Part shown: positions 1 to 10,903 of the stretch, one piece after another | How the letters are laid out: each line of letters starts with the position of its first letter | Position numbering within the stretch: the first letter of the stretch is position 1 | Origin: Candidatus Latescibacterota bacterium | GTDB taxonomy: Bacteria > Latescibacterota > UBA2968 | Reading direction: 5' to 3' | Length of the DNA: 64,000 nt | Assembly: GCA_965205975.1 (NCBI GenBank) | Contig: OZ242195.1 | Coordinates: 5,248,001 to 5,312,000, forward strand | Notes under the pieces: generated by a model | Told to the model about the DNA's origin: nothing | Database searches by the model: none | The model's input: the letters and a program-made list of their open reading frames with translations, nothing else | Program-made: the position numbers and the translations under genes

Positions 1-1244
1 TGAGATTGATTGGATAGATGGATCGGTGGACAATGTCCTGCGCTTGCAAGCGTGACTTCGCCGGTGGGTACGTCGAGCACGGCGATGCAGCAGGTGATAA
101 ATGTGGTCTGGTCAATCTGACCTTCCAGTGAGTCATTAAGACCGTCGAGAATATCGGCTGGCGCAACGCGATTTTGGCATTCATAGCGGAGCATTTCATT
201 GAAACGCACGGCGGTCACGGCTGCTTCCATGGCTTTGCCAGAGACATCGGCAACGACTATGCCGAGTTTTGTTTTTTCTTTATCCAACCAGCGGTACGTA
301 TAGTAATCCCCGCCGACGCTGTTGGCGGGAATACAGGTTCCGTCGAGTGCATAACCAGGCAGGTCGGGACTGGATTGCGGCAATAGACCCATTTGCATGT
401 CGTGTGCTGTTTGCAATTCATCGCGCATTTCGGAAAATTGTTGTTTGTAGCTTTCCCACTGTCGCGCTTCTTCGCAGAGGGTCTGGTTGTAGGCCGATGC
501 AAAAATTCCGAGCGCGAGGGGCTGAAAGAGGACGAAGACACAGAATGTGGCGAAGGTATTATCGACGATGTTCTCGACGAGTATCACTGAGCCGACAAGA
601 ATTCCGAGCGCGGTGAGTATAAGCGCGCAGTGGCGAAAGAAACCGTAGCGTTCAACGGCTTTGCGGCTTTCGACATAGGCTTCATCAATGTGTACCCCGC
701 GGTCTGCTGCCAAAAGATAGATATAGAAGCATTTGACAACAAAAATGAGGCCGGGTAAAAATAAGAGGCAAGCTGCCGGAATGACGGCATAATAAATAAT
801 ATTTTTATCTTCTAAAAATCTTCCAATGTTTTCTGGTGCAGCGGGGATATCCCAGGTCGTTTCTCGGGCGACGACCTGTTTGAATGCATTGAGCAGGAAT
901 GCAAAGAAATCACTGTTCACAAAAACCAGCACTACAATGAGGGCGAAGCCGAGAATAAAAAACAAAAAAATAAAAATATTCATCGAAAAAAAACGGACGA
1001 AACGAATGATCTGCCCAAATAGATCTTGCATACGGGGTTTTGCTCCTTGCTGCGCGCGCAAGATCATGATGGCAAAGCCAGCATATAAGCTGCCCAGGAG
1101 CAAAGTGCCCGATATCGCACTCAGGAGTATTGCCAAAAATGAAGCGAGGAACAAAATGGGCAGGTGGCTCGCCCAGGAGGATATGCTGTCGTTGAGACAG
1201 CGAAAGAATTGGAGATTTGCCCGAACGGGGATGTCGAGAGCCAT
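1..1244 (-). CDS. Membrane-anchored PP2C/SpoIIE-family (RsbU-like) Ser/Thr phosphatase, 3' end runs off the window
   Basis: Not in the ORF track because it is truncated. Manual translation from ATG 1244 stays open to the window edge: several hydrophobic segments, then ELQTAHDMQMGLLP...VGGDYY...GIVVADVSGKAMEAA...TFITCCIAVLD...ASAGHCPP, the SpoIIE/RsbU motifs. Confidence 0.88.
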   Translation of the reverse strand, partial: MALDIPVRANLQFFRCLNDSISSWASHLPILFLASFLAILLSAISGTLLLGSLYAGFAIMILRAQQGAKPRMQDLFGQIIRFVRFFSMNIFIFLFFILGFALIVVLVFVNSDFFAFLLNAFKQVVARETTWDIPAAPENIGRFLEDKNIIYYAVIPAACLLFLPGLIFVVKCFYIYLLAADRGVHIDEAYVESRKAVERYGFFRHCALILTALGILVGSVILVENIVDNTFATFCVFVLFQPLALGIFASAYNQTLCEEARQWESYKQQFSEMRDELQTAHDMQMGLLPQSSPDLPGYALDGTCIPANSVGGDYYTYRWLDKEKTKLGIVVADVSGKAMEAAVTAVRFNEMLRYECQNRVAPADILDGLNDSLEGQIDQTTFITCCIAVLDVPTGEVTLASAGHCPPIHLSNQS

Positions 1245-1249
1245 AACAA

Positions 1250-2659
1250 TCAGGGTTTTTCTTTGTTGAGTTTGTATTTGCGGTACAGGTGGCGAAATTG
1301 GTCGTAGCTGAGTTTGAGTTGTTTGGCGGCGTCGCGCTGGTTCCAGGAGACTTTATTGAGGATGCGTCGCAATAGACTCAGTTCAAAGGATTGCACTTGT
1401 GATTCAAAGCTGTCGTTCAATTCGGGTGATTGGGGTGCTTGTTGCGAAACTTCGGGGGGCAAATCGCCCGGTTCAATCTCTGTCCCTCGGGCGACACAGG
1501 CCGCGCGTTCGGCTGCAAATTTGAGTTCGCGCACATTGCCCGGCCAGCGATATGTCATCAGGCGTTCTATTGCCGCATCGGAAAAATCGCGTTTTTGAAG
1601 GCCCGGTACTTCCTCGACGATTTGCGCGACAAAATAATCGGCTAATGCGGGAATGTCTTCGAGGCGTTCGCGCAATGGGGGCATGTGCAAAACTTCAAAG
1701 CGCAATCTGTCGTAGAGGTCCTGACGGAATCGACCTTCGGCAATTTCCGTTTCGAGATCGGTATTCGTGGCGGCAATAACGCGAACATCGACAAAAATGG
1801 GGGTCGCACTGCCCACGCGCTGGATTTCGCTATATTCAATGGCGCGCAATACGTTTTGCTGAAACTCGGGGGTGGTGTTGCCAATTTCATCGAGGAATAG
1901 AGTGCCGCCACTCGCGGCTTCAAATTTGCCCGGGCGGGCTTCTGTCGCGCCTGTATAAGCCCCTTGTTCGTGTCCAAAGAGTTCGCTTTCGAGCAATTGG
2001 TCGGCAATGGCGGCGCAATTGACTTTGACAAAGGGACGGTCTTTGCGGTCACTGCCATAGTGGATGGCAGCGGCGACGAGTTCTTTGCCCGTTCCGGGTT
2101 CGCCTGTGATGAGCGCGGGCCTGGGGATGGGGGCTACGGTTTGCGCTCGCTGAAGAATTTGCTGGAGTTTGGGGCTGGAGCCGATGATTTGATAACGCTT
2201 GCCAAATTCGTCCCGGTAGAATTGGTTTTCGCGCCCCAGGTCCTGAACTTCGGCTCGCAGTTGGGCGTTTTCTCTGAGTGCTTGATACACGCGGTCGAGT
2301 TTTTCAAGGCTGAGTTCGATTTTGTCTTCTATATAAAAGTCTTTTTCAATAAAGTCTGTTGCGCCCAATCGCAATGCAGCTACGGCAGTATCTATTGTGC
2401 CCTGGCCGGTAAGCATAATGACGGGAAGGGCGGGAACCGCTTCGAGCATTTGCGGTAAAATTTCGAGGCCATCGGGTTCATTGGGACCGTAATCGAGGTC
2501 GAGAATGGCCAGACTAATCTGATCGGGATACTGTTTGAGATATGTTAGAGCTTCGCGCCCTGTCGAAAAGGCATGGACAGTCCGCGTGTCGTCTCGCAGG
2601 CTTCGAATTAGCATGTCGAGGACTTCGATCTGGTCGTCAGCAACGATAATTTCGGTCAT
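1250..2659 (-). CDS. Sigma-54 activator: receiver domain + PspF-clade AAA+ domain + HTH
   Basis: Receiver residues (VADD, ILD, MLTG, FIEK); Walker A GEPGTGKE; ESELFGHEQGAYTGA; LFLDEI; WPGNVREL. PspF-like signatures LRAIEY, DLYDRLRFEV and the C-terminal NQRDAAKQLKLSYDQFR. Confidence 0.93.
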   Translation of the reverse strand: MTEIIVADDQIEVLDMLIRSLRDDTRTVHAFSTGREALTYLKQYPDQISLAILDLDYGPNEPDGLEILPQMLEAVPALPVIMLTGQGTIDTAVAALRLGATDFIEKDFYIEDKIELSLEKLDRVYQALRENAQLRAEVQDLGRENQFYRDEFGKRYQIIGSSPKLQQILQRAQTVAPIPRPALITGEPGTGKELVAAAIHYGSDRKDRPFVKVNCAAIADQLLESELFGHEQGAYTGATEARPGKFEAASGGTLFLDEIGNTTPEFQQNVLRAIEYSEIQRVGSATPIFVDVRVIAATNTDLETEIAEGRFRQDLYDRLRFEVLHMPPLRERLEDIPALADYFVAQIVEEVPGLQKRDFSDAAIERLMTYRWPGNVRELKFAAERAACVARGTEIEPGDLPPEVSQQAPQSPELNDSFESQVQSFELSLLRRILNKVSWNQRDAAKQLKLSYDQFRHLYRKYKLNKEKP

Positions 2660-2681
2660 GGGAGAAATATTGAAAAGGGTC

Positions 2682-3950
2682 TTATTGAATAAATTCTTCT
2701 GCTATAGGATCGCGCGAGGTGTCGGGAACGCTGTGTTGCAGACCAATGCTGTCTTGTTGTGTTGAGACTTCAAAATCGACAGGCAGGTCAATGCGAAAAA
2801 CCGCGCCTGCGCCCGGGCGACTGATCACGCGTAGCGTGCCGCGGTGTGCCGCTGCAATGCGAGAGCAGATGCTCAGCCCATATCCATTGCCCCTTTCCCG
2901 CGTTGAAAATCCGGGGTCAAATATACGGGTTTGCAAGTTTTCGGGAATACCGGGACCATTGTCTTCCACTTCAATATATACCGAACTGCGCTCTGTGTCG
3001 GCGCCGACCTGTACTGTTACCACGCCATTGTCTTCAACGGCTTCGATGGCGTTGAGGGTCAGGTTTGTGACGGCTTCAGATAACATGCCTGCGTCCGCTT
3101 TTACCTGAGGTACATGAGGTTCGGCTGCAAATGTGAGTTCTTTTTGCCCTGCTCGTGCAGAGAGTTTATGGGTTATTTTTCCAATGAGTTGAGGCACATC
3201 GACCAGCGCGAGATTCATGGTGTCTTGTTTCATAGACCGCAAGTAGGCAACCCATTGGTTGTAGATGTGTTCTTGTTCGTGTGCGATGTCTTTTAGATCA
3301 TCCAGGCCGTGTGTATCTGGCGGTAAATTGCGTATGGCGCGGCGCATTCGGCTGCCAGAGAGGCCCATCAGATTTTTGATGCGGTGGCCGTGCGTGTAGA
3401 GGCTTTCATAGACTTGGGCACGGCCCAGGTCTATGAGTTCGAGAGATAGGCGGGCGAGAATACCCGGTGCTCTAACGCCAAATTCTTCGGTGATGCTTTC
3501 GTATTCGCGTTCCATTTGTGTCGAACTCATGTGGTGAAAGAGCAGCCGAGCGAGATTGCCATAGGGCAGCATGTAATCGGGTTCGAGGTGTATGGCGATT
3601 TTAAACTCGCCAAGTGCCGATAAAATTTGCCCATTTTGCATGAGCAAAACGCCCAGGTTGTTATGCCCGGGCGCGAAGAGTGGATCGGCTTCTAAACCCC
3701 GGCGATAAACGGGAATCGCTCGAGATGCGTTTTCAGGAAAGTCATCGAGCAGGCTGCCCAACAAAAAACAGACGCGGTCAATGAGGGCTTGTTCACCACC
3801 CCGGTTATCGACAGACAAAATGTATTCGAGGTGTTCAACCGCTTTTTTGTAGTCGTCTGAACCCGGTGCTGCCCCGCGAGCGTGTTGCAGGGCCGTTTGG
3901 AAACGGGCTTCCAGATCCAGATCGGAGATTATGTTCAGGGTGTTGGACAT
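2682..3950 (-). CDS. Soluble TPR-containing sensor histidine kinase
   Basis: TPR-like helices (GHNNLGVLLMQNGQILSALGEFKIAIHLEPDY); H-box THGHRIKN; N-box NLTLNAIEA; G1 EDNGPGI; F-box FDPGFST; G2 GNGYGL. No TM segment visible. Confidence 0.9.
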   Translation of the reverse strand: MSNTLNIISDLDLEARFQTALQHARGAAPGSDDYKKAVEHLEYILSVDNRGGEQALIDRVCFLLGSLLDDFPENASRAIPVYRRGLEADPLFAPGHNNLGVLLMQNGQILSALGEFKIAIHLEPDYMLPYGNLARLLFHHMSSTQMEREYESITEEFGVRAPGILARLSLELIDLGRAQVYESLYTHGHRIKNLMGLSGSRMRRAIRNLPPDTHGLDDLKDIAHEQEHIYNQWVAYLRSMKQDTMNLALVDVPQLIGKITHKLSARAGQKELTFAAEPHVPQVKADAGMLSEAVTNLTLNAIEAVEDNGVVTVQVGADTERSSVYIEVEDNGPGIPENLQTRIFDPGFSTRERGNGYGLSICSRIAAAHRGTLRVISRPGAGAVFRIDLPVDFEVSTQQDSIGLQHSVPDTSRDPIAEEFIQ

Positions 3951-3972
3951 GGCTGTACTTGCGCGTTGTCGC

Positions 3973-5559
3973 CTACGCCTCTGCGTCTTCTGAAGTATCG
4001 GATTTGCCGTTTTCCCCTGCCGTTTGTTCGCCGTTCATTTTGCCCAGAAATTCGGGTAATTCAAGCCCGGCCAGACGCGCCAGATCGTGCATAGGCGGTA
4101 TGGCACCCATGAGGCGTTGTCCCAGGTTGGACATGCCACTCTCGCCATTGCCGCTATCCCAGACCATTACTTTGTCGATGGGTAAGTTGCTAATGGCTTC
4201 TGCCTGGATGTTGGCGACTTCGGTGAGGCGTTCGATGATCAGGAAGGCCGCTGCTGCCTGGTCGTTGCTGCCACAGGCTTCAACGAGTTGTCTGTATCCT
4301 TCTGCTTTGGCGTTGAGGATGGCCTGAGTCCCTTCGGCTTCTGCCTGTTTTTGTGCGAGAATGGCAGCGGCTTCACCTTCGGCAATAAGTCGTAGCTGTT
4401 CTTTTTCGGCTTCTGCTTGAACGACCTGGCGTTGTTTTTCGGCTTCTGCCTGAACGACGATTTCTGCGCGTAAGCGCGCTTCTTCGCGCAGTGCTCGGGC
4501 TTCTTCGGCTGCTTTTTCAGCGGTTTCCTGCGCGACGCGAATGGCGCCGTCGGTGGCTTTGGTCGCTTCTTCTGATTTTCGGCGCGCTTCTTCTTCTGCC
4601 ACGCGTTGTCCTGCGCGATAGCCGGCTGTTTTTGCTTCTGCTTCTGTTTCTGATTGTACGGCTTCTGCTTCGAGAGCCGCGACATTTTGGCGTTTGTCTC
4701 GCCCGGCCTGTGCTTCGCCAATTTCGGCTTCTGATTCGAGTGCGGCAACTTGTCGTCGTCTGTCGCGTGCAGCTTCAGATTCACCGATTTCGGCTTCTGA
4801 TTCGAGTGCGGCAACTTGTCGTCGTCTGTTTCGCGCGGCTTCTGCTTCGCCAACTTCGGCTTCTGATTCGGCTGCGGCGACGTCCCGACGGCGGTCGCGT
4901 GCGCGTTCGGCCACGCCGACCTGTCCGTGTCGTTCTTGTTCGGCTACGTCGATAGATGCCTGATTCACGGCTTCAGCCGCTGCTTTTTGGCCGATGGCTT
5001 TGATGTAGCCGCTTTCGTCGTCGAGGTCTTTGATGTTGACGTTGATAACGGCCAGACCAATTTTTTCCATTTCAGTGGAGACGGCGTCATTTACTTTGGT
5101 CATGAATGCCTGCCGGTCCTGATTGATTTCTTCGATTTGCATGGTTGCAATGACTGCGCGCATCTGGCCGAGAATGATGTCCTGTGCCTGACTCTGAATT
5201 TGATCGCGGGAAAGGCCCAGGAGGCGAATGGCCGCGTTTTGCATGATGCCGGGCTGATTGGAGACGGCTGCTGTGACTGTGGTGGGCACGGATACGCGGA
5301 TGTTTTCCTGTGATAGCGCGTTGTCCAGGTCGATGGGCACGACAAAGGGTTCGAGGTCTAGGTACTCGTAATCCTGCAAAAGGGGCAGGACAAAAGCTGC
5401 GCCACCGTGTACACATTTTGCGGCTGTGCCACCTCCCGTTTTGCCGTAGATGACGAGGATTTTGTTGGATGGACAGCGCTTGTAACGCGAGATAAATGTG
5501 AGGAACAGCAATAATACAACGGCTGATAGGATGACGATGAGAATGAATTCGGTGGGCAT
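3973..5559 (-). CDS. Flotillin/SPFH-domain protein (FloT/YuaG-like)
   Basis: N-terminal TM, then RYKRCPSNKILVIYGK...GGAAFVLPLLQ SPFH domain and a long AE-rich coiled coil; GGAGG RBS; directly downstream of an NfeD-like gene. Confidence 0.93.
   Translation of the reverse strand: MPTEFILIVILSAVVLLLFLTFISRYKRCPSNKILVIYGKTGGGTAAKCVHGGAAFVLPLLQDYEYLDLEPFVVPIDLDNALSQENIRVSVPTTVTAAVSNQPGIMQNAAIRLLGLSRDQIQSQAQDIILGQMRAVIATMQIEEINQDRQAFMTKVNDAVSTEMEKIGLAVINVNIKDLDDESGYIKAIGQKAAAEAVNQASIDVAEQERHGQVGVAERARDRRRDVAAAESEAEVGEAEAARNRRRQVAALESEAEIGESEAARDRRRQVAALESEAEIGEAQAGRDKRQNVAALEAEAVQSETEAEAKTAGYRAGQRVAEEEARRKSEEATKATDGAIRVAQETAEKAAEEARALREEARLRAEIVVQAEAEKQRQVVQAEAEKEQLRLIAEGEAAAILAQKQAEAEGTQAILNAKAEGYRQLVEACGSNDQAAAAFLIIERLTEVANIQAEAISNLPIDKVMVWDSGNGESGMSNLGQRLMGAIPPMHDLARLAGLELPEFLGKMNGEQTAGENGKSDTSEDAEA
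4680..4880 (-). repeat. Three 66-bp (22-aa) tandem repeats in the flotillin coiled coil
   Basis: ESEAE(V/I)GExxAxRxxRxxVAAL x3; a 43-bp block is identical at 4721-4763 and 4787-4829. Confidence 0.9.
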
Positions 5560-5574
5560 GGGACCTCCTTTGGT

Positions 5575-6180
5575 TCAGGATTGAATGGGTTCGACTTCAA
5601 CGGTGGTTATGTCGAGTGTTCGCAGTACGCGAACCGGCGTTTTGTTATGGATGTGCTGCCCGTCTTTGCTGCGCGCAGAGACATAGTTGACAGCCCCGCT
5701 TTCCATCACGCGAATTTGACCGGCACCATTTTCGGGGATGTCGATATAGACTTCGCCTTCATTGCCGATGCAGGATGATAGGTTTCGGTTATGCGATTCG
5801 GAGAGTTGTTGCACTTTGTAGAAGAAGTACGCAACCAGGACCATCCCCGCGCCGCCCCAGACGAGGCCGCGAAGAACCGACTCTTCGATTGAGAGGCCCA
5901 GGTCGAGGTAGAGTGCGCCCGCCCATCCAAAGAGCATGCCAAAGGCGATCACAGAGCGCAGTGAGAGCAGTTGAAAGGTTGCGACACCGTGATCATAAGG
6001 ACTATTATCGACATCTGGGCCTGCATCGTTGGCATTGAAGTCGTCGGCAAGGCTATCTGCGGAATCGCCCAGGCCGATGAGTGTCGTGATAAATTGCCAG
6101 AGAAACAAAAGGGTGAAGAAGACAGCACAGCCATAGAATGCCTGATTGAGAGGCGCGAGTTCTGTCCACCATGCCTGCAT
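5575..6180 (-). CDS. NfeD-like (YuaF-type) membrane protein, flotillin partner
   Basis: Start moved to ATG 6180 (GGAGG 5 nt upstream). Three TM segments with LLSLRSVIAFGMLFGWAG and a C-terminal OB fold (IGNEGEVYIDIP...GQIRV). Confidence 0.85.
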   Translation of the reverse strand: MQAWWTELAPLNQAFYGCAVFFTLLFLWQFITTLIGLGDSADSLADDFNANDAGPDVDNSPYDHGVATFQLLSLRSVIAFGMLFGWAGALYLDLGLSIEESVLRGLVWGGAGMVLVAYFFYKVQQLSESHNRNLSSCIGNEGEVYIDIPENGAGQIRVMESGAVNYVSARSKDGQHIHNKTPVRVLRTLDITTVEVEPIQS

Positions 6181-6229
6181 ATTAACCTCCAGAAATTTTG
6201 CGCGTTCTATCAACTGATCTTTATGTTCC

Positions 6230-6390
6230 TAACTGACGTTATGCAGAGGCACACTATAATGTACCTGTCATTCTGAGCCGTAACGCAGTGGAGGCGAAGA
6301 ATCTCTTACCAACACAGGTGGAAGGGATGCTTCGGCTCCGTTCCACTCCGCTCAGCATGACAAACACCCAGACCTGCGTAACATCAGTTA
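6230..6390. mobile_element. MITE-like palindromic element with nested inverted repeats
   Basis: Outer IR TAACTGACGTTATGCAG (6230-6246) / CTGCGTAACATCAGTTA (6374-6390), 2 mismatches. Inner IR TGTCATTCTGAGC (6266-6278) / GCTCAGCATGACA (6350-6362), 1 mismatch, enclosing CGAAGAATC/GATGCTTCG. Non-coding. Confidence 0.6.
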
Positions 6391-6432
6391 CTAAATTTGT
6401 CTATGCAAAGTACGAAAAGCAAGGGTTATTTC

Positions 6433-7023
6433 TTATCCAGGCTGTAAACCGAGTTTGCGAAATTCGTTTTTGAGCTGGCGGCGGGCGCGGCACAGCCAGG
6501 TTTTGACGGTTCCAAGCGGAACGCGAAGCGCCTGTGTGATTTCTTCGTAGGACCAGTCCATGACGTAGCGCAGCCACATGGCTTTGCGATAGCGTTCGGG
6601 TAAGTTTTGAATGCTTTTGTGGACCAATTGTATGCGTTCGCGTTTTTCGACTATTTGGTCTGGTAGCGTGCCAGGTATGATGTCGCGGATGACGTTGCGA
6701 ACGACTTCGGGGTCTTCGGTTTGATAGACCCAGTTTTGCCGAACTTGTTGCGAGCGCAGGTGTGAGCGATAGACGTTGAGGGCAATTTGTGTGAGCCAGG
6801 TCGAAAATGCCGCCTGGCCTTTGAATGTGTGGAGCGAGCGATAGGCGCGGAAAAATGTGTCTTGCATCAGGTCGTCAACAGTGTCGCGGTCCGAAATGCG
6901 CTGTGCGAGGGTGCCGTAGATCTGACTTTGATATTTGTGGTAGAGCGTTTCAAATGCCCGGCGGTCACCCGAGATGGATGCGCGAATCAGGTTTTGATCC
7001 TGTGTTTTCACTTTTTTCTCCAT
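6433..7023 (-). CDS. ECF sigma-70 factor (SigW/RpoE-like)
   Basis: Region 2 GDRRAFETLY...DDLMQDTFFRAYRSLHTFKGQAAFSTWLTQIALN; region 4 LPERYRKAMWLRYVMDWSYEEITQALRVPLGTVKTWLCRARRQL. Confidence 0.93.
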   Translation of the reverse strand: MEKKVKTQDQNLIRASISGDRRAFETLYHKYQSQIYGTLAQRISDRDTVDDLMQDTFFRAYRSLHTFKGQAAFSTWLTQIALNVYRSHLRSQQVRQNWVYQTEDPEVVRNVIRDIIPGTLPDQIVEKRERIQLVHKSIQNLPERYRKAMWLRYVMDWSYEEITQALRVPLGTVKTWLCRARRQLKNEFRKLGLQPG

Positions 7024-7081
7024 TCGTTAAGGTAATTTGTTTATTGCTATTCTTTTGTTTGTGACAAGACGGATTTTTCCG

Positions 7082-7252
7082 TCAGTCTCTTTTGATCAAG
7101 CGATAACCGATTCCAATACATATAACGGCGATGGCGAGTTTGAGCAGGAGAAAGAGTAGCCCAAATAGAGAGCCGATGAGCGGGAAGAGAACCTGGATGG
7201 CGATAATGCCACCGATGATGATGAGTACGATGCCGATGAGTTTTGCCAACAT
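7082..7252 (-). CDS. 56-aa two-TM membrane protein (LiaI/PspG-like), missing from the ORF track
   Basis: Manual translation MLAKLIGIVLIIIGGIIAIQVLFPLIGSLFGLLFLLLKLAIAVICIGIGYRLIKRD*; AAAGGA RBS; sits in operon order. Confidence 0.75.
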   Translation of the reverse strand: MLAKLIGIVLIIIGGIIAIQVLFPLIGSLFGLLFLLLKLAIAVICIGIGYRLIKRD

Positions 7253-7298
7253 GGGGTGTCCTTTTTATTTGTGAGGTTGTCCGTCAATTTGGTTTAAG

Positions 7299-7520
7299 TT
7301 AGCGAGAAATAGGCGATCGCTCGAATTTTTCGTCAATGGTGATGAGGATGTCCTGAATGTCCGTAAGCCTGCGGTCGAGTTCGTCCATTCGTTCATTCAA
7401 ACGTTTTTCCGCATCGCTGGGGATAGAGCTTCTGGTGCGGCGGTTGATGAATTTGTGTGCTGCTGATACAATGGCTCCTACAACGATGATCATCGATATA
7501 CCAACAAAGAAATCAATCAC
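7299..7520 (-). CDS. PspB-like single-TM coiled-coil protein, paralog 2
   Basis: GTG 7520 after GGGAGG. TM then RRTRSSIPSDAEKRLNERMDELDRRLTDIQDILITIDEK; size and topology match PspB. Confidence 0.6.
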   Translation of the reverse strand: MIDFFVGISMIIVVGAIVSAAHKFINRRTRSSIPSDAEKRLNERMDELDRRLTDIQDILITIDEKFERSPISR

Positions 7521-7530
7521 GGTGCCCTCC

Positions 7531-7734
7531 CTATTTTCTGCTGAGTTTTTCGTCAATGGTGATCATGACGTCTTGTATATCTGTGAGCCTGCGGTCGAGT
7601 TCGTCCATTCTCGCGTTGATCCGTTCTTCCGCATCGCTGGGGACGGATCTTCTGGTGCGTTGTTCAACGTATTTGTATGCTGCTGATGCGAGAATGATCA
7701 GCGCTACCATTATTCCAATTTCAAACATTACCAT
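7531..7734 (-). CDS. PspB-like single-TM coiled-coil protein, paralog 1
   Basis: ATG 7734 after GGAGGAG. TM then QRTRRSVPSDAEERINARMDELDRRLTDIQDVMITIDEK; tandem duplicate of the next gene. Confidence 0.6.
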   Translation of the reverse strand: MVMFEIGIMVALIILASAAYKYVEQRTRRSVPSDAEERINARMDELDRRLTDIQDVMITIDEKLSRK

Positions 7735-7755
7735 TATTTTCTCCTCCCACACACA

Positions 7756-8427
7756 TTAAAGTTCATCGACGGGTCTCGCGCGGTATTTTTCATCCCAGCG
7801 TTCGATTTCCGGAAAGTGGTAAACGACCAGGCCCGAATCTGAGATTCGCATTTCCGCATGACCACTTATGGTTAATTCTCGCAGGATTTCTTCGGTTTTT
7901 TCAACTGTTATTCTGGTGTCCATAGCAGCTTCTGTCACGGTGAGGCTGCCCCCTTTGTCCCGGGCGAGACGGAGTATGCGGTGCTGATTTTTGGCATGTG
8001 CTTTTTTGTCTCCCGATCTTTTGACCCGGCGACCTGCCCACCATATAAGTTGAGAGAATACGATTAGAGCGAGACCACCGCTGAGTTCTTCGTGCATGAA
8101 TGGGTTTGTACCATCGGCCCAGGGAGGGTATTGTATCAATACCGTGAGTACGAGCAGGAGGCCGCAAAATCCCATAAGTGCAGCCATTCCTATTAAGCCA
8201 TAAGCAAAGAGATAACGCATGGCACAACTCCCATCGGTGGCGAGGTCAGAGAGACGGTCGGGCACGCGCTTGAATGAATGGGTTGCGGTTTGGAAATCAC
8301 TGCCCGCGCTGTGAACGCGCGCCTCCCAGTTTCCCTTCCATTTCTTTTTTATTTTTCGCTCCGCATTGTTGACCGCGTGGTCAATTTTGTTGGCGATTTC
8401 ATCGGCGAGTTTTTCCAGGTCACGCAT
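7756..8427 (-). CDS. Two-TM membrane protein with N-terminal helix and C-terminal winged-helix-like domain
   Basis: Overlaps the pspA stop by 8 nt. Two hydrophobic segments; the C-terminal ILRLARDKGGSLTVTEAAMDTRITVEKTEEILRELTISGHAEMRISDSGLVVYHFP has a wHTH pattern. Confidence 0.7.
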   Translation of the reverse strand: MRDLEKLADEIANKIDHAVNNAERKIKKKWKGNWEARVHSAGSDFQTATHSFKRVPDRLSDLATDGSCAMRYLFAYGLIGMAALMGFCGLLLVLTVLIQYPPWADGTNPFMHEELSGGLALIVFSQLIWWAGRRVKRSGDKKAHAKNQHRILRLARDKGGSLTVTEAAMDTRITVEKTEEILRELTISGHAEMRISDSGLVVYHFPEIERWDEKYRARPVDEL

Positions 8428-9097
8428 CTTTTTGTCCCATTTTCTTTTTTAGCGCACTGAGTTCGTCTTCTACTGTGCTTTTGCGCTCGAGTTTGGAAAA
8501 TTCTTCTTCCAGAGAGGGGTCAGCACTCGCCATTTCTTGATGGGCTTCGGCTTCGGCTTCTTCGGTTTCGATGCGCTGACGGAATCGTTCAAAGCTCGAA
8601 AAAGCGTCTTCACCCACTCCTGATAGGCCCCTGGCGATTTGCTTGCGGGCTTCGGCTGCACGGCGGCGAGCAATCAGGGTGCCCTGGCGGGTGCGGGCTT
8701 CGTCGAGTTTAGCTTTGAGTTGGGTGAGTTGTTGTTTGAGTTGGGACGAGGTTTTACGGCTTTCTTCGAGGGCTACTTCGAGGTCGTGCGTGGCTTCCTG
8801 ATTTGCAGCTTTGCGCTCGAGGGCGCGGCGGGCAAGGTCGTCTTCGCCAGATTCAACAGCTAATTCCGCCTTTTTTTGCCATGCTTCAATCTGATCTTGT
8901 TTTTCGAGATATTGTCTTTCCAGGCGTTTTTCATTGGCAACAGCCGTGCCGACTGAGGCAGTGGCTTTGTTGACGGCTTCTTCCATTTCCAGAATCATCT
9001 GGCGGATCATTTTTTCCGGGTCTTCTGCGCGGGTAATCAGGTCGTTGACGTTGGCTTTGACGATGTCAGCCATTCTATAAAAAATTCCGCGTGCCAT
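8420..9097 (-). CDS. pspA: PspA/IM30 (Vipp1/ESCRT-III superfamily) phage shock protein A
   Basis: GIFYRMADIVKANVNDLITRAEDPEKMIRQMILEME...GEDDLARRALERK...FERFRQRIE...LEEEF...VEDELSALKKKM; AAGGAG RBS. Confidence 0.96.
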   Translation of the reverse strand: MARGIFYRMADIVKANVNDLITRAEDPEKMIRQMILEMEEAVNKATASVGTAVANEKRLERQYLEKQDQIEAWQKKAELAVESGEDDLARRALERKAANQEATHDLEVALEESRKTSSQLKQQLTQLKAKLDEARTRQGTLIARRRAAEARKQIARGLSGVGEDAFSSFERFRQRIETEEAEAEAHQEMASADPSLEEEFSKLERKSTVEDELSALKKKMGQKDA

Positions 9098-9166
9098 GAT
9101 CTGCTCCTTTCACAAGGTGCTGCATTTATGGGGATTCTGATGTTTTTTGTTGTCGCACTCTTTTTA

Positions 9167-9182
9167 TGCAAAGTTTATGCCA
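9167..9182 (-). promoter_or_regulatory. Sigma-54 -24/-12 promoter of the psp operon
   Basis: Minus strand TGGCATAAACTTTGCA matches TGGCACN5TTGCW with exact GG-N10-GC spacing, about 70 nt before the pspA ATG. Confidence 0.85.
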
Positions 9183-9257
9183 GGCGTGCGATATGATATT
9201 AAATGTTGTTTTATATATATATAGATGTTTTTGAGAATTGGGTTGGGTCGATAAAGT

Positions 9258-9294
9258 TGGTGAAAATTCCCATGTGTTCTGGCGAAAGAGACCA
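9258..9294. promoter_or_regulatory. Two candidate enhancer (UAS) boxes for the PspF-like activator
   Basis: TGGTGAAAATTCCCA (9258-9272) and TGGCGAAAGAGACCA (9280-9294) are 15-bp imperfect palindromes 22 bp apart, roughly 100-140 bp upstream of the predicted start. An AT-rich tract (~9195-9232) separates them from the promoter. Confidence 0.6.
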
Positions 9295-9430
9295 AGTTTC
9301 TCATTTTTAGTCGAATATTTTTAGAGGGTCATATCTTGTCTTTTTTTTCTAAAAGGTCTATTATCTATCGGTTTTGTCGCAAGTTGGTCTCAAATACCAT
9401 CACTTTTTCCCTCTACATACTGAATTTTTT

Positions 9431-10903
9431 ATGTTTCGATATATCCGAGTGTCTTTATTGGCTTGCTTCCTTTTGTCGTGTGCGGCACATGCGCCCGCTT
9501 TAACAGAGACTTATGTGGTGCAAAGAGGGGATTCTCTGTGGGAAATTGCCGATCGGTTTTCCATGAGTGTGACCGAACTCAAGCGGAGCAATGGGTTAAA
9601 GTCGCATCACATTTATCCCGGGCAAAGACTGCTCATTCGCTCACAAGGACTTCGCTCTCGTCCTTCCAGTGGGGTAGAATACGTGGTGAGAAGGGGAGAT
9701 TCGCTTTCTAAAATCGCCGTGCGGTATTCTATGAGTGTGACCGAACTGAAGCGGATCAATGGGTTGAGGTCGAATAATATTTATCCCGGACAAAGGCTTC
9801 GCACGCGTTCTTATACTGTGCAATCGTCTCGTACTGTGCAATCGTCTCGCTCCCGTCCATCTTCTGGCTATGTAGAAATGGACTATGTGGTGAGAAGGGG
9901 AGATTCGCTTTCTAAAATTGCCGCGCGATTTTTCACAGATTTGGCCGAACTTAAGCGGAGCAATGGCATCCGGTCGGATCGCATCTATGTGGGCCAGAGG
10001 TTAAAGGTACGGACTCGGCTGCAAAAGATCGCAATAGATAATGGACCGTATTATTTTTCTCGTCCCAAAGCCGCTGTGCAACGCAGTCGGGGATATCGGG
10101 AAGTGTCCTCCAAAAAGCCGATTGAAGATTATAGGAGTGCTCAAAATTTGATGGGCGTGTTTAATGCAAGTATTAATTCTGATATGCGTCGAGATGGCGG
10201 ATCATTGAAAGGCTGGCGCATTGTACTCGACCCGGGGCACGGTGGACGCGATCCGGGTGCTATTGTTTCCAATTTAGATGGCAATAATCGTTCGGTTTAT
10301 GTGGTCGAAGACGAATTTGTTTACGATATTGCGTTGCGTTTGTACCAAAAACTGAGGCTTGCAGGTGCCGAGGTGGAGATGACGGTGATTAGTCCAAATC
10401 ATCTCATTCGGGAAAATAATCCGCCTGCAAGGACGTTTGTACACGAACAAAACGAAGTCTATAACGATGTAAGTGTCAACAGAAGAAATAGTTTTTCAGT
10501 GCGTCCGGGGCTTGACAATATTGTACAAAGGGTAAAAATAGCCAACCGTTTCTTTGCAAGGCGCGGGAAGACTCTGTTTATATCCCTGCATGCAGACAAC
10601 ACTCCCAATCGTCCAAAGGGTCCTCTGGTTATTTATTGGAGCAGGCGCGGGAAGATCGATTCCCGGTCCCGGTTATTTGCACGGATTATGGAAAGGGCAC
10701 TCGATCTGCCAGATGTGTCGGCACAAATTGGGGGGCGCAATCTGGCGGTGTTGCGGGGCAATCTGGCGCAGGCAGAAATTCTGGTGGAGATACGCAATGT
10801 ACACCATAAAGGCGAAGCATGGGCATTGCGTTCTCACAAGATACGCGATTCAGATGCGGATCGCATTTTTCGCGGGATATTAAATTACGCGAAGAGGTAT
10901 TAG
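9431..10903 (+). CDS. Secreted N-acetylmuramoyl-L-alanine amidase (Amidase_3) with three LysM domains
   Basis: Signal peptide; three Y-V-V-x-R-G-D-S-L...IY(P/V)GQRL LysM repeats; LDPGHGGRDPGA, ISLHAD and ILVE Zn/catalytic motifs. Confidence 0.9.
   Translation: MFRYIRVSLLACFLLSCAAHAPALTETYVVQRGDSLWEIADRFSMSVTELKRSNGLKSHHIYPGQRLLIRSQGLRSRPSSGVEYVVRRGDSLSKIAVRYSMSVTELKRINGLRSNNIYPGQRLRTRSYTVQSSRTVQSSRSRPSSGYVEMDYVVRRGDSLSKIAARFFTDLAELKRSNGIRSDRIYVGQRLKVRTRLQKIAIDNGPYYFSRPKAAVQRSRGYREVSSKKPIEDYRSAQNLMGVFNASINSDMRRDGGSLKGWRIVLDPGHGGRDPGAIVSNLDGNNRSVYVVEDEFVYDIALRLYQKLRLAGAEVEMTVISPNHLIRENNPPARTFVHEQNEVYNDVSVNRRNSFSVRPGLDNIVQRVKIANRFFARRGKTLFISLHADNTPNRPKGPLVIYWSRRGKIDSRSRLFARIMERALDLPDVSAQIGGRNLAVLRGNLAQAEILVEIRNVHHKGEAWALRSHKIRDSDADRIFRGILNYAKRY

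Follow-up and report, generated by a model that had tools for sequence, protein, structure and literature searches.

A Latescibacterota Psp locus with a receiver-bearing PspF relative and a soluble TPR kinase predicted to bind PspA

Introduction

What is understood of how proteins of the PspA/Vipp1/ESCRT-III family signal membrane damage to transcription comes mainly from enterobacteria, in which PspA binds the sigma-54 activator PspF. Here, we describe a Psp locus at the start of a 64,000-nucleotide stretch (the window) of contig OZ242195.1, which belongs to a 5.56 Mb, single-contig, 98% complete genome of Candidatus Latescibacterota. The initial annotation of this DNA read the locus as a merger of four envelope-stress circuits; its chief interest is instead that an activator of the PspF lineage is placed under a two-component system, the kinase of which is the predicted target of PspA.

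The locus shares with the enterobacterial Psp system a sigma-54 promoter ahead of pspA, paired upstream sites that agree in sequence type and nearly in period (20 versus 21-22 nt; 22 nt at the window), an activator with PspF-lineage AAA+ and helix-turn-helix (HTH) domains, a small second target locus and predicted negative feedback by PspA. The differences lie in the wiring. Enterobacteria have a divergent pspF, the pspABCDE operon and pspG; here, the activator is encoded co-oriented and downstream, has a receiver and lacks W56, the residue that E. coli PspF needs in order to be bound and inhibited by PspA (PMC3128695, PMC6003685). A cognate soluble TPR kinase is present, through which feedback is predicted to run, there is no PspC and no demonstrable PspB, and the second target is another pspA rather than pspG. 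PspF variants have been described by Ravi et al. (2024) as NtrC-like genes bearing ACT or PAS domains, co-oriented in gammaproteobacterial psp operons in which pspBC are present. Compared with those variants as described there, the activator here has a receiver (REC) in place of a ligand-binding ACT or PAS domain, and a TPR kinase accompanies it.

In the NtrB-NtrC system with PII, a soluble HisKA kinase serves a REC-AAA+ sigma-54 activator, and a binding protein sets the kinase/phosphatase balance. The Latescibacterota locus departs from this scheme in that the predicted controller is the ESCRT-III-family effector itself, acting on a TPR domain, and in that Arg or Gln follows the phosphorylatable His (H+1). 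Two-component systems and small membrane proteins also stand beside a PspA homolog in Bacillus LiaFSR-liaIH and in actinobacterial loci (PMC11237479), but those described have membrane-bound kinases and REC-winged-helix regulators, in contrast to the soluble kinase and sigma-54 AAA+ activator here. Likewise, the two-component psp loci of Ravi et al. (2024) have membrane kinases and REC-winged-helix regulators in the article's text and at all 12 HISKIN places of one supplement.

The initial annotation knew of no characterised system with this architecture. That statement holds insofar as a search whose coverage left most subscription literature outside found no published description of a receiver-bearing PspF with a TPR kinase, or of a PspA-kinase contact; it does not hold for the pspA-flotillin-NfeD link, since pspA beside Band-7/flotillin and NfeD/YuaF/YqiJ genes is already catalogued (PMC9239133, for Acidobacteriota; PMC11237479). 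The main texts of these two papers do not name Latescibacterota; the large data tables of the former (OpARA) and the web app of the latter may list such loci.

A Conserved Core with Lineage-Specific Additions

As proposed from the sequence at the outset, eleven co-oriented genes lie on the minus strand, at 1..9097 with the last, a PP2C phosphatase gene, running off the window; open reading frame positions and family searches bear this out. Packing is tight, with gaps of -8 to 58 nt, the sole exception being some 220-250 nt between the ECF sigma factor and nfeD genes. But which of these genes make up the system? The comparison covers 41 Latescibacterota pspA loci, assembled from two sets of 20 regions containing pspA or the activator and two more, the window's own included; duplicates L070 and L121 were dropped, and L116, with an activator and no pspA within 14 kb, falls outside the set.

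A gene for a protein with two transmembrane (TM) segments and a winged helix follows pspA in 40 of the 41 loci. The TPR kinase is present in 39 and the activator in 38, two of the misses being contig ends and the third genome G026, which has neither; the two genes are adjacent and downstream of pspA in 38 loci spread over three families (f1 to f3). Small genes for one-TM coiled-coil proteins (a family of 75 open reading frames) occur in zero to five copies per locus, and a 56-residue two-TM protein is encoded in 33. The remaining genes are distributed differently: the ECF gene is found in 23 loci, all with the window's gene order; nfeD, never without flotillin, in 16, with the pair missing from 9 of the 25 loci of the window's order (some truncated by contig ends); and the PP2C gene in 14, none of them among the nine f2 loci. 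All four are absent from the 16 f3 loci. Given these counts, the conserved system is pspA, the two-TM winged-helix and small membrane genes, the TPR kinase and the receiver-bearing PspF relative, whereas ECF, nfeD-flotillin and PP2C are lineage add-ons. The core order is thus syntenic across the phylum's loci and the cluster does have its own activator and kinase, both as first suggested; the notion of one merged unit fails on the accessory genes, missing throughout f3 and patchy elsewhere.

Across 151 genomes of the phylum, the activator is found in 85 at an E-value of 1e-112 or better (26/29 in f1, 18/19 in f2 and 40/64 in f3) and in none of the 38 genomes of other families. One locus (L107:13954-15062) has an extra pspA directly after the activator gene, then a TM2-domain protein ending in a coiled-coil tail of the small one-TM family.

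A PspF-Lineage Activator with a Receiver

Of all proteins in the genome, the activator (1250..2659, minus strand; 469 residues; Response_reg and Sigma54_activat) best matches E. coli PspF and is the only one to match TIGR02974, the pspF model, at 1e-90; this model is also its best NCBIfam hit (342 bits, under the 443.55 cut-off). Its HTH recognition helix aligns as PspF-like. Unlike canonical PspF, which has no N-terminal regulatory domain, it begins with a receiver (Response_reg, 6e-16) whose residues D8, D9, D54, T84 and K106 are intact and conserved in the aligned homologs.

Membership of the PspF lineage does not hinge on the HTH. In a FastTree phylogeny of the AAA domain alone, 15 receiver-less PspFs cluster with the receiver-bearing forms in a single group of 61 (support 1.0), leaving outside it all 34 generic representatives and all 20 other activators of this genome. 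IQ-TREE on 36 rows recovers the PspF clade at 100/100 and, within it, the receiver-less PspFs on a long branch, also at 100/100; paraphyly of the receiver forms is weakly supported (85/72) in this unrooted tree. W56 tracks the receiver-less forms: it is present in 15/15 of them and in 0/15 Latescibacterota, 0/12 Myxococcota and 0/18 unplaced relatives. K206 takes its place in the window's activator, and the receiver forms in general have Lys, Arg or Ala at this position, as unrelated activators do.

Could PspA still inhibit the activator directly, through a site independent of W56, besides or in place of control by phosphorylation? PspA E39, which aligns with E. coli E37, a residue with a role in PspF binding, is invariant. 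In E. coli, a PspA fragment (residues 145-222) is reported to bind a second site on PspF (PMC6003685). Set against this are the residues at the W56 position, indistinguishable in kind from those of unrelated activators, the full conservation of the receiver and the retention of the kinase beside the activator in complete Latescibacterota pspA loci (G026 lacks both); direct inhibition is accordingly quite improbable.

Ten further PspF-clade activators without W56 (P0328, P0333, P0341, P0346, P0348, P0354, P0357, P0358, P0386 and P0444) suggest from their sequences that the family may be wider; the unplaced P0444 (344 residues) is receiver-less yet also lacks W56. A metagenome scan (alignment A2) returned mostly generic activators, with only L124, which comes without upstream DNA, family-like. 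The receiver form was found in 0/301, 0/201 and 0/151 sampled genomes of the phyla of G153, G154 and G155 with P0333 as query, a result that is uninformative since 5-10 candidates were scored per genome and there was no positive control. At L040:3961-5390, the activator gene is split by a frameshift, through assembly error or decay.

Promoter, Upstream Sites and Regulon

A sigma-54 promoter ahead of pspA had been predicted, and a -24/-12 element (GG-N10-GC) does lie at 9167..9183 on the minus strand; a sigma-54 element is found upstream of pspA in 42/42 rows, that is, in 41/41 distinct loci, and rpoN is present in the genome. Upstream of it stand two imperfect palindromes of the PspF upstream activator site (UAS) type, also on the minus strand: a distal site 1 (9280..9294) and, with a period of 22 nt, a proximal site 2 (9258..9272), 91 nt before the -24 GG. 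The tandem pair outscores 100/100 shuffles in 36/41 loci, and at the window 0/100 shuffles reach its score. The pattern behind these figures was written by hand after viewing the E. coli and Latescibacterota sites and is thus partly circular; a matrix built from aligned upstream regions was made to remove the circularity. The most conserved 40 columns of 22 such regions are exactly the tandem pair. Built from Latescibacterota DNA only, the matrix ranks first, within 5 kb, the pair between E. coli pspF and pspA (17.4 versus 6.2), which we take to be UAS I/II; the site before E. coli pspG ranks no higher than second in its 5 kb and scores weakly (7.1).

Site 2 lies 90-94 nt from the promoter in 13 loci, 99-106 nt in 20 and 115 nt in one (81 nt in E. 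coli), so that the two distance clusters differ by about one turn of the helix, as looping would predict. The second most conserved block of the upstream alignment is an AT-rich stretch between the sites and the promoter (9196..9225), a likely candidate for an IHF bending site; the genome has four HU/IHF-family genes.

What does the activator control? In a genome-wide scan for upstream sites plus promoter, with a matrix that left out the window's own locus, L041, L121 and five off-register loci, the pspA promoter of the window ranks first (45.4) and that of a second, stand-alone pspA 160 kb away ranks next (44.5), followed by a drop to 32.3. The second match lies 63 nt ahead of its gene (L257; G000:C1:5095832-5096494), and the sites and promoter are kept in 18/19 orthologous loci. 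The activator very probably controls both pspA promoters. The second PspA lacks the conserved helix-1 patch described below and is likely an effector-only member of the regulon.

The genome has a third pspA (G000:C1:5462101-5463926) that gave no scan match; it is preceded by a gene for a 131-residue protein, which we take by eye to be CesT-like, and followed by one for 204 residues. The arrangement resembles the CesT-PspA dyad described in PMC11237479. Divergent from the pspA of the window, across a common intergenic region, is a gene for a LysM-repeat N-acetylmuramoyl-L-alanine amidase (9374-10903), a neighbor found throughout the loci with the window's order.

A Soluble Kinase with an Unusual Catalytic Motif

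The kinase (2682..3950, minus strand; 422 residues; TPR and HATPase_c) is modelled (predicted local distance difference test, pLDDT, 81) without a membrane segment, as TPR helices followed by a HisKA-type core whose best fold matches are ZraS and HK853. H189, N300, D330, G332, F344 and G356 are conserved; the His and all four boxes (N, G1, F and G2) are thus kept. In this genus the protein is about 120 residues shorter than most homologs (about 543 residues), lacking N-terminal TPR repeats and retaining those predicted to bind PspA.

The residues around H189 raise the question of what the enzyme does. An acid at H+1 is needed for the autokinase activity of HisKA proteins, and H+4 for their phosphatase activity (PMC8292422). 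In the family here, H+1 is Arg or Gln in 52/52 kinases (Arg in the window) and H+4 is an invariant Asn, whereas H+1 is Glu in all 9 readable other kinases of the genome (5 are unreadable). The TPR protein might therefore act solely as a phosphatase that PspA binding switches on, while the activator would receive its phosphoryl group from acetyl phosphate or a different kinase. Precedents exist: DrBphP, whose HisKA domain has no acid at H+1, is a phosphatase (PMC8292422), and Campylobacter BumS is described as phosphatase-only, its partner BumR using acetyl phosphate (PMC12469816); two genes of the acetate kinase family are present in this genome. What makes this alternative unlikely is the retention of H189 and all four boxes, together with an acid that appears elsewhere: the position eight before the N box (E292 here) is acidic in 39/39 Latescibacterota and 9/13 Myxococcota kinases and in 0/8 readable other kinases of the genome, and P0085, a distant homolog, shows the canonical Glu/Gln pair. 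The pattern looks like a charge swap that could keep a catalytic base, and with it kinase activity. HWE/HisKA2 kinases keep their catalytic base in a comparable way.

Predicted Docking of PspA on the Kinase

If the activator lacks W56, through what could PspA act? PspA (8420..9097, minus strand; 225 residues; ESCRT-III superfamily, PspA_IM30 PF04012 at 2.3e-46) has a near-invariant patch at residues 41-62 of helix 1, predicted to bind the kinase. A three-chain model of PspA, kinase residues 10-250 and the winged helix reaches a complex score of 0.71, against 0.00 for the best of three controls, one of which had the kinase replaced; the mark is reached by 116/157 solved and 2/215 mismatched pairs, counts that are only roughly valid here because the model has three chains and its own alignments, unlike the calibration set. 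The runs share at least 64% of contacts, with a partner pLDDT of at least 75. All confident contacts lie between PspA (the hairpin, residues 41-62 and 105-123, and residues 8-10) and the kinase TPR helices (83-124 and 152-160). By sequence, the TPR part matches nothing in the PDB but generic TPR proteins.

Conservation points the same way. Conservation is higher at the interface than at the remaining positions, both in the PspA family (0.91 versus 0.71; permutation p 0.0006 within the hairpin) and in the kinase (0.71 versus 0.56; p 0.014). Identity at the PspA interface positions is 93%, against 72% elsewhere, in the kinase-linked PspA family, 46% against 42% in the second PspA and 23% against 39% in E. 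coli PspA; the patch is near-invariant only in the kinase-linked family. Together, the model and the conservation lend support, not proof, to the prediction that PspA docks on the TPR domain. As the activator lacks W56 and the kinase is predicted to bind PspA, the kinase likely takes over the feedback role.

Small Membrane and Winged-Helix Proteins

Between pspA and the ECF gene lie the genes, all on the minus strand, for the two-TM protein with a C-terminal winged helix (7756..8427, overlapping the pspA stop by 8 nt; 223 residues), two small one-TM coiled-coil proteins (7531..7734 and 7299..7520, the latter 59% identical to the former) and the 56-residue two-TM protein (7082..7252). The two small proteins had been called PspB-like. 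The likeness stands for topology, one TM segment plus a coiled coil; as to homology, PspB is absent among the 25 top-listed Pfam families for 29 members, and a profile comparison of the family with one E. coli PspB sequence gives a probability of 16.7%. Pfam listing and profile comparisons thus leave both PspB and PspC homology of the small proteins unsupported. The absence of pspC, noted at the outset, extends to the whole genome, in which PF04024 finds no match (the control was found in 7/14 genomes).

The two-TM winged-helix protein is a likely membrane partner, and PspA next to winged-helix genes has been described (PMC10936438). Its winged helix is a generic fold by model and fold search: 3cuq_A (Z 10.7, root-mean-square deviation 4.5, 78 aligned) ties with Z-alpha, ArsR and MarR matches. 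A search of the ESM Atlas gave unnamed clusters only. Anchoring of PspA in the manner of ESCRT-II (Vps22/25/36) was considered and dropped, the fold match being generic; the control with PspA and the winged helix minus the kinase scored 0.00, which is neither support nor counter-evidence.

Might these membrane proteins, rather than PspA, control the kinase as LiaF does LiaS, leaving PspA as output only and the modelled contact as an artefact? Their genes are core (the 40, "most" and 33 of 41 loci for the winged-helix, one-TM and 56-residue proteins, respectively), and 3/20 members of the 56-residue family weakly match LiaF-TM (PF22570, best E 0.035). Most kinase homologs also have extra N-terminal TPRs that would offer other surfaces, and the Myxococcota surfaces discussed below are not enriched in conserved residues. 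Yet the Myxococcota have the kinase pair and no match to the three membrane families, the PspA patch is near-invariant only where PspA is kinase-linked, and the complex passes its mark with controls at 0.00; control by the membrane proteins is hence improbable.

Kinase, Activator and pspA in a Second Phylum

A receiver-bearing PspF relative is encoded in 17/301 Myxococcota genomes. Among these 17 loci, 12 have an adjacent TPR kinase that shares the His-Arg box, 10 have pspA downstream and 8 combine all three. The order is kinase, activator, pspA, second pspA, an uncharacterised gene, an nfeD-like gene (8 loci) and flotillin (the 4 loci where the DNA reaches). A sigma-54-like element precedes pspA in 8 of the 10 loci, only 2 to 3 show strong pairs of sites, and none of the three Latescibacterota membrane families has a match in these loci. 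The uncharacterised gene, at L238:4804-5562 and in eight related loci, encodes a conserved 253-residue protein that matches no Pfam family.

Proposed Mechanism

We propose, as somewhat better than an even bet in its entirety, that this is a Psp locus in which a PspF-lineage activator with a receiver and without the docking W56 is subject to PspA feedback through the soluble TPR kinase. In unstressed cells, free PspA would hold the kinase in an off or phosphatase state, leaving D54 of the activator unphosphorylated. Upon membrane damage, PspA would be drawn to the membrane, aided by the two-TM winged-helix and small TM proteins, and polymerise; the released kinase would phosphorylate the activator, opening the sigma-54 promoters of the cluster and of the lone second pspA, and newly made PspA would close the loop. 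The ECF factor, NfeD-flotillin and PP2C would be outputs that sub-lineages acquired.

Several points weigh against this mechanism, in addition to the missing acid at H+1. The sign of regulation, with PspA inhibiting the kinase, follows from logic only. Conservation and complex score are not independent, for conserved surfaces can attract such models, and the controls included no PspA paralog; the same positions are mildly enriched in the second PspA family (0.62 versus 0.52, p 0.065; p 0.012 over the whole protein). In Myxococcota, the corresponding surfaces differ and show no enrichment (kinase p 0.64, PspA hairpin p 0.33), so the contact may not carry over outside Latescibacterota, and 7/17 activator loci there lack pspA in the DNA examined. 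G026 has neither kinase nor activator, and still the promoter and 81% of the PspA patch are retained there. The loci are kin, and counts and p-values overstate their independence. Finally, eight metatranscriptome runs, available as contigs only, cover the region, but one contig also spans the divergent amidase gene; the runs thus likely include DNA, which makes operon and start site unreadable.

The G026 locus (L044, G026:C1:1005000-1022000) comes from a 97% complete single-contig genome; it has lost the kinase, the activator and most of the cluster and retains pspA, the 56-residue gene and the sigma-54 promoter. The helix-1 stretch of its PspA has three changes (G50A, V53G and N55G), against two in a kinase-bearing sister.

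Accessory Genes and the Four-Circuit Reading

The accessory genes, all on the minus strand, had suggested a fusion of Psp, Lia-type, SigW-flotillin and Rsb circuits in which ECF, flotillin and PP2C would be required parts of one autoregulated unit. The ECF factor (6433..7023; Sigma70_r2 and r4_2) falls below all equivalog cut-offs and scores higher with RpoE (1.8e-37) than with SigW (1.7e-33); no anti-sigma gene is adjacent. NfeD/YuaF-like protein (5575..6180) is a weak match to NfeD (E 0.01, below cut-off). Flotillin (3973..5559; Band_7 at 1e-27 plus a coiled coil) matches the FloT model at 7e-45, below cut-off, and has 22-residue tandem repeats (4713-4860), in which strain contigs differ by 66 nt. 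The membrane PP2C phosphatase (SpoIIE type, 1.6e-45; 522 residues) occupies 1..1244 and ends at window position -324; its gene is in two pieces at L033, L040, L119 and L120, through assembly error or decay.

The gap between ECF and nfeD holds a repeat element of about 140 nt (6256-6400) with 27 BLAST hits across the genome; because relatives' contigs skip it at the same site, it is likely a recent small mobile insertion. No conserved motif of an internal ECF or sigma-70 promoter was seen by eye in 23 aligned spacers ahead of nfeD, and a consensus scan was uninformative.

Such a fusion draws on the co-orientation and small gaps, with no strong minus-strand terminator match in any intergenic gap of the cluster, and on the recurrence of the Psp-flotillin linkage, Myxococcota having the nfeD-like gene after the pspA pair in 8 loci and flotillin in 4. 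Its parts do not hold up. The two-component system is not Lia-type: LiaS is membrane-bound and LiaR a REC-winged-helix protein (PMC11237479), whereas the kinase here is soluble, with a HisKA fold like ZraS and HK853, and the regulator an NtrC-type AAA+ protein of PspF lineage. Partner switching of the Rsb type finds no adjacent partners, for the gene after PP2C is thiI, neither STAS nor anti-sigma, and the nearest of the genome's 8 STAS matches lies about 190 kb away, leaving action in trans as a possibility. Myxococcota flotillin is only 26% identical, the flotillin link was already published, and the accessory genes are absent from f3 and patchy elsewhere; compared with the published pspA-flotillin-NfeD neighborhoods, the pair is here optional (16/41), sits inside a kinase/REC-PspF cluster and is accompanied by no CesT-like chaperone or extra AAA ATPase at the locus. 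A four-circuit unit is thus very improbable.

Implications

PspF-like proteins outside enterobacteria are described as difficult to link to Psp (PMC9239133); in this case, common upstream sites at two pspA promoters provide the link. In the tree, the long branch of the receiver-less PspFs lies within or next to the receiver-bearing forms from two phyla. A conjecture, tentative and in our view doubtful as a whole, is that the TPR kinase is a dedicated receptor for unpolymerised PspA and that the two-component wiring is the ancestral Psp circuit, from which PspF lost receiver and kinase and gained W56. Besides a kinase family whose catalytic motif is unusual, the locus thus suggests where PspF may have come from. 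Because the kinase, the activator and PspA are all soluble, reconstitution of the circuit is feasible in vitro or in E. coli; if the mechanism is true, it would allow a direct test of whether the polymerisation state of PspA is itself the stress signal.

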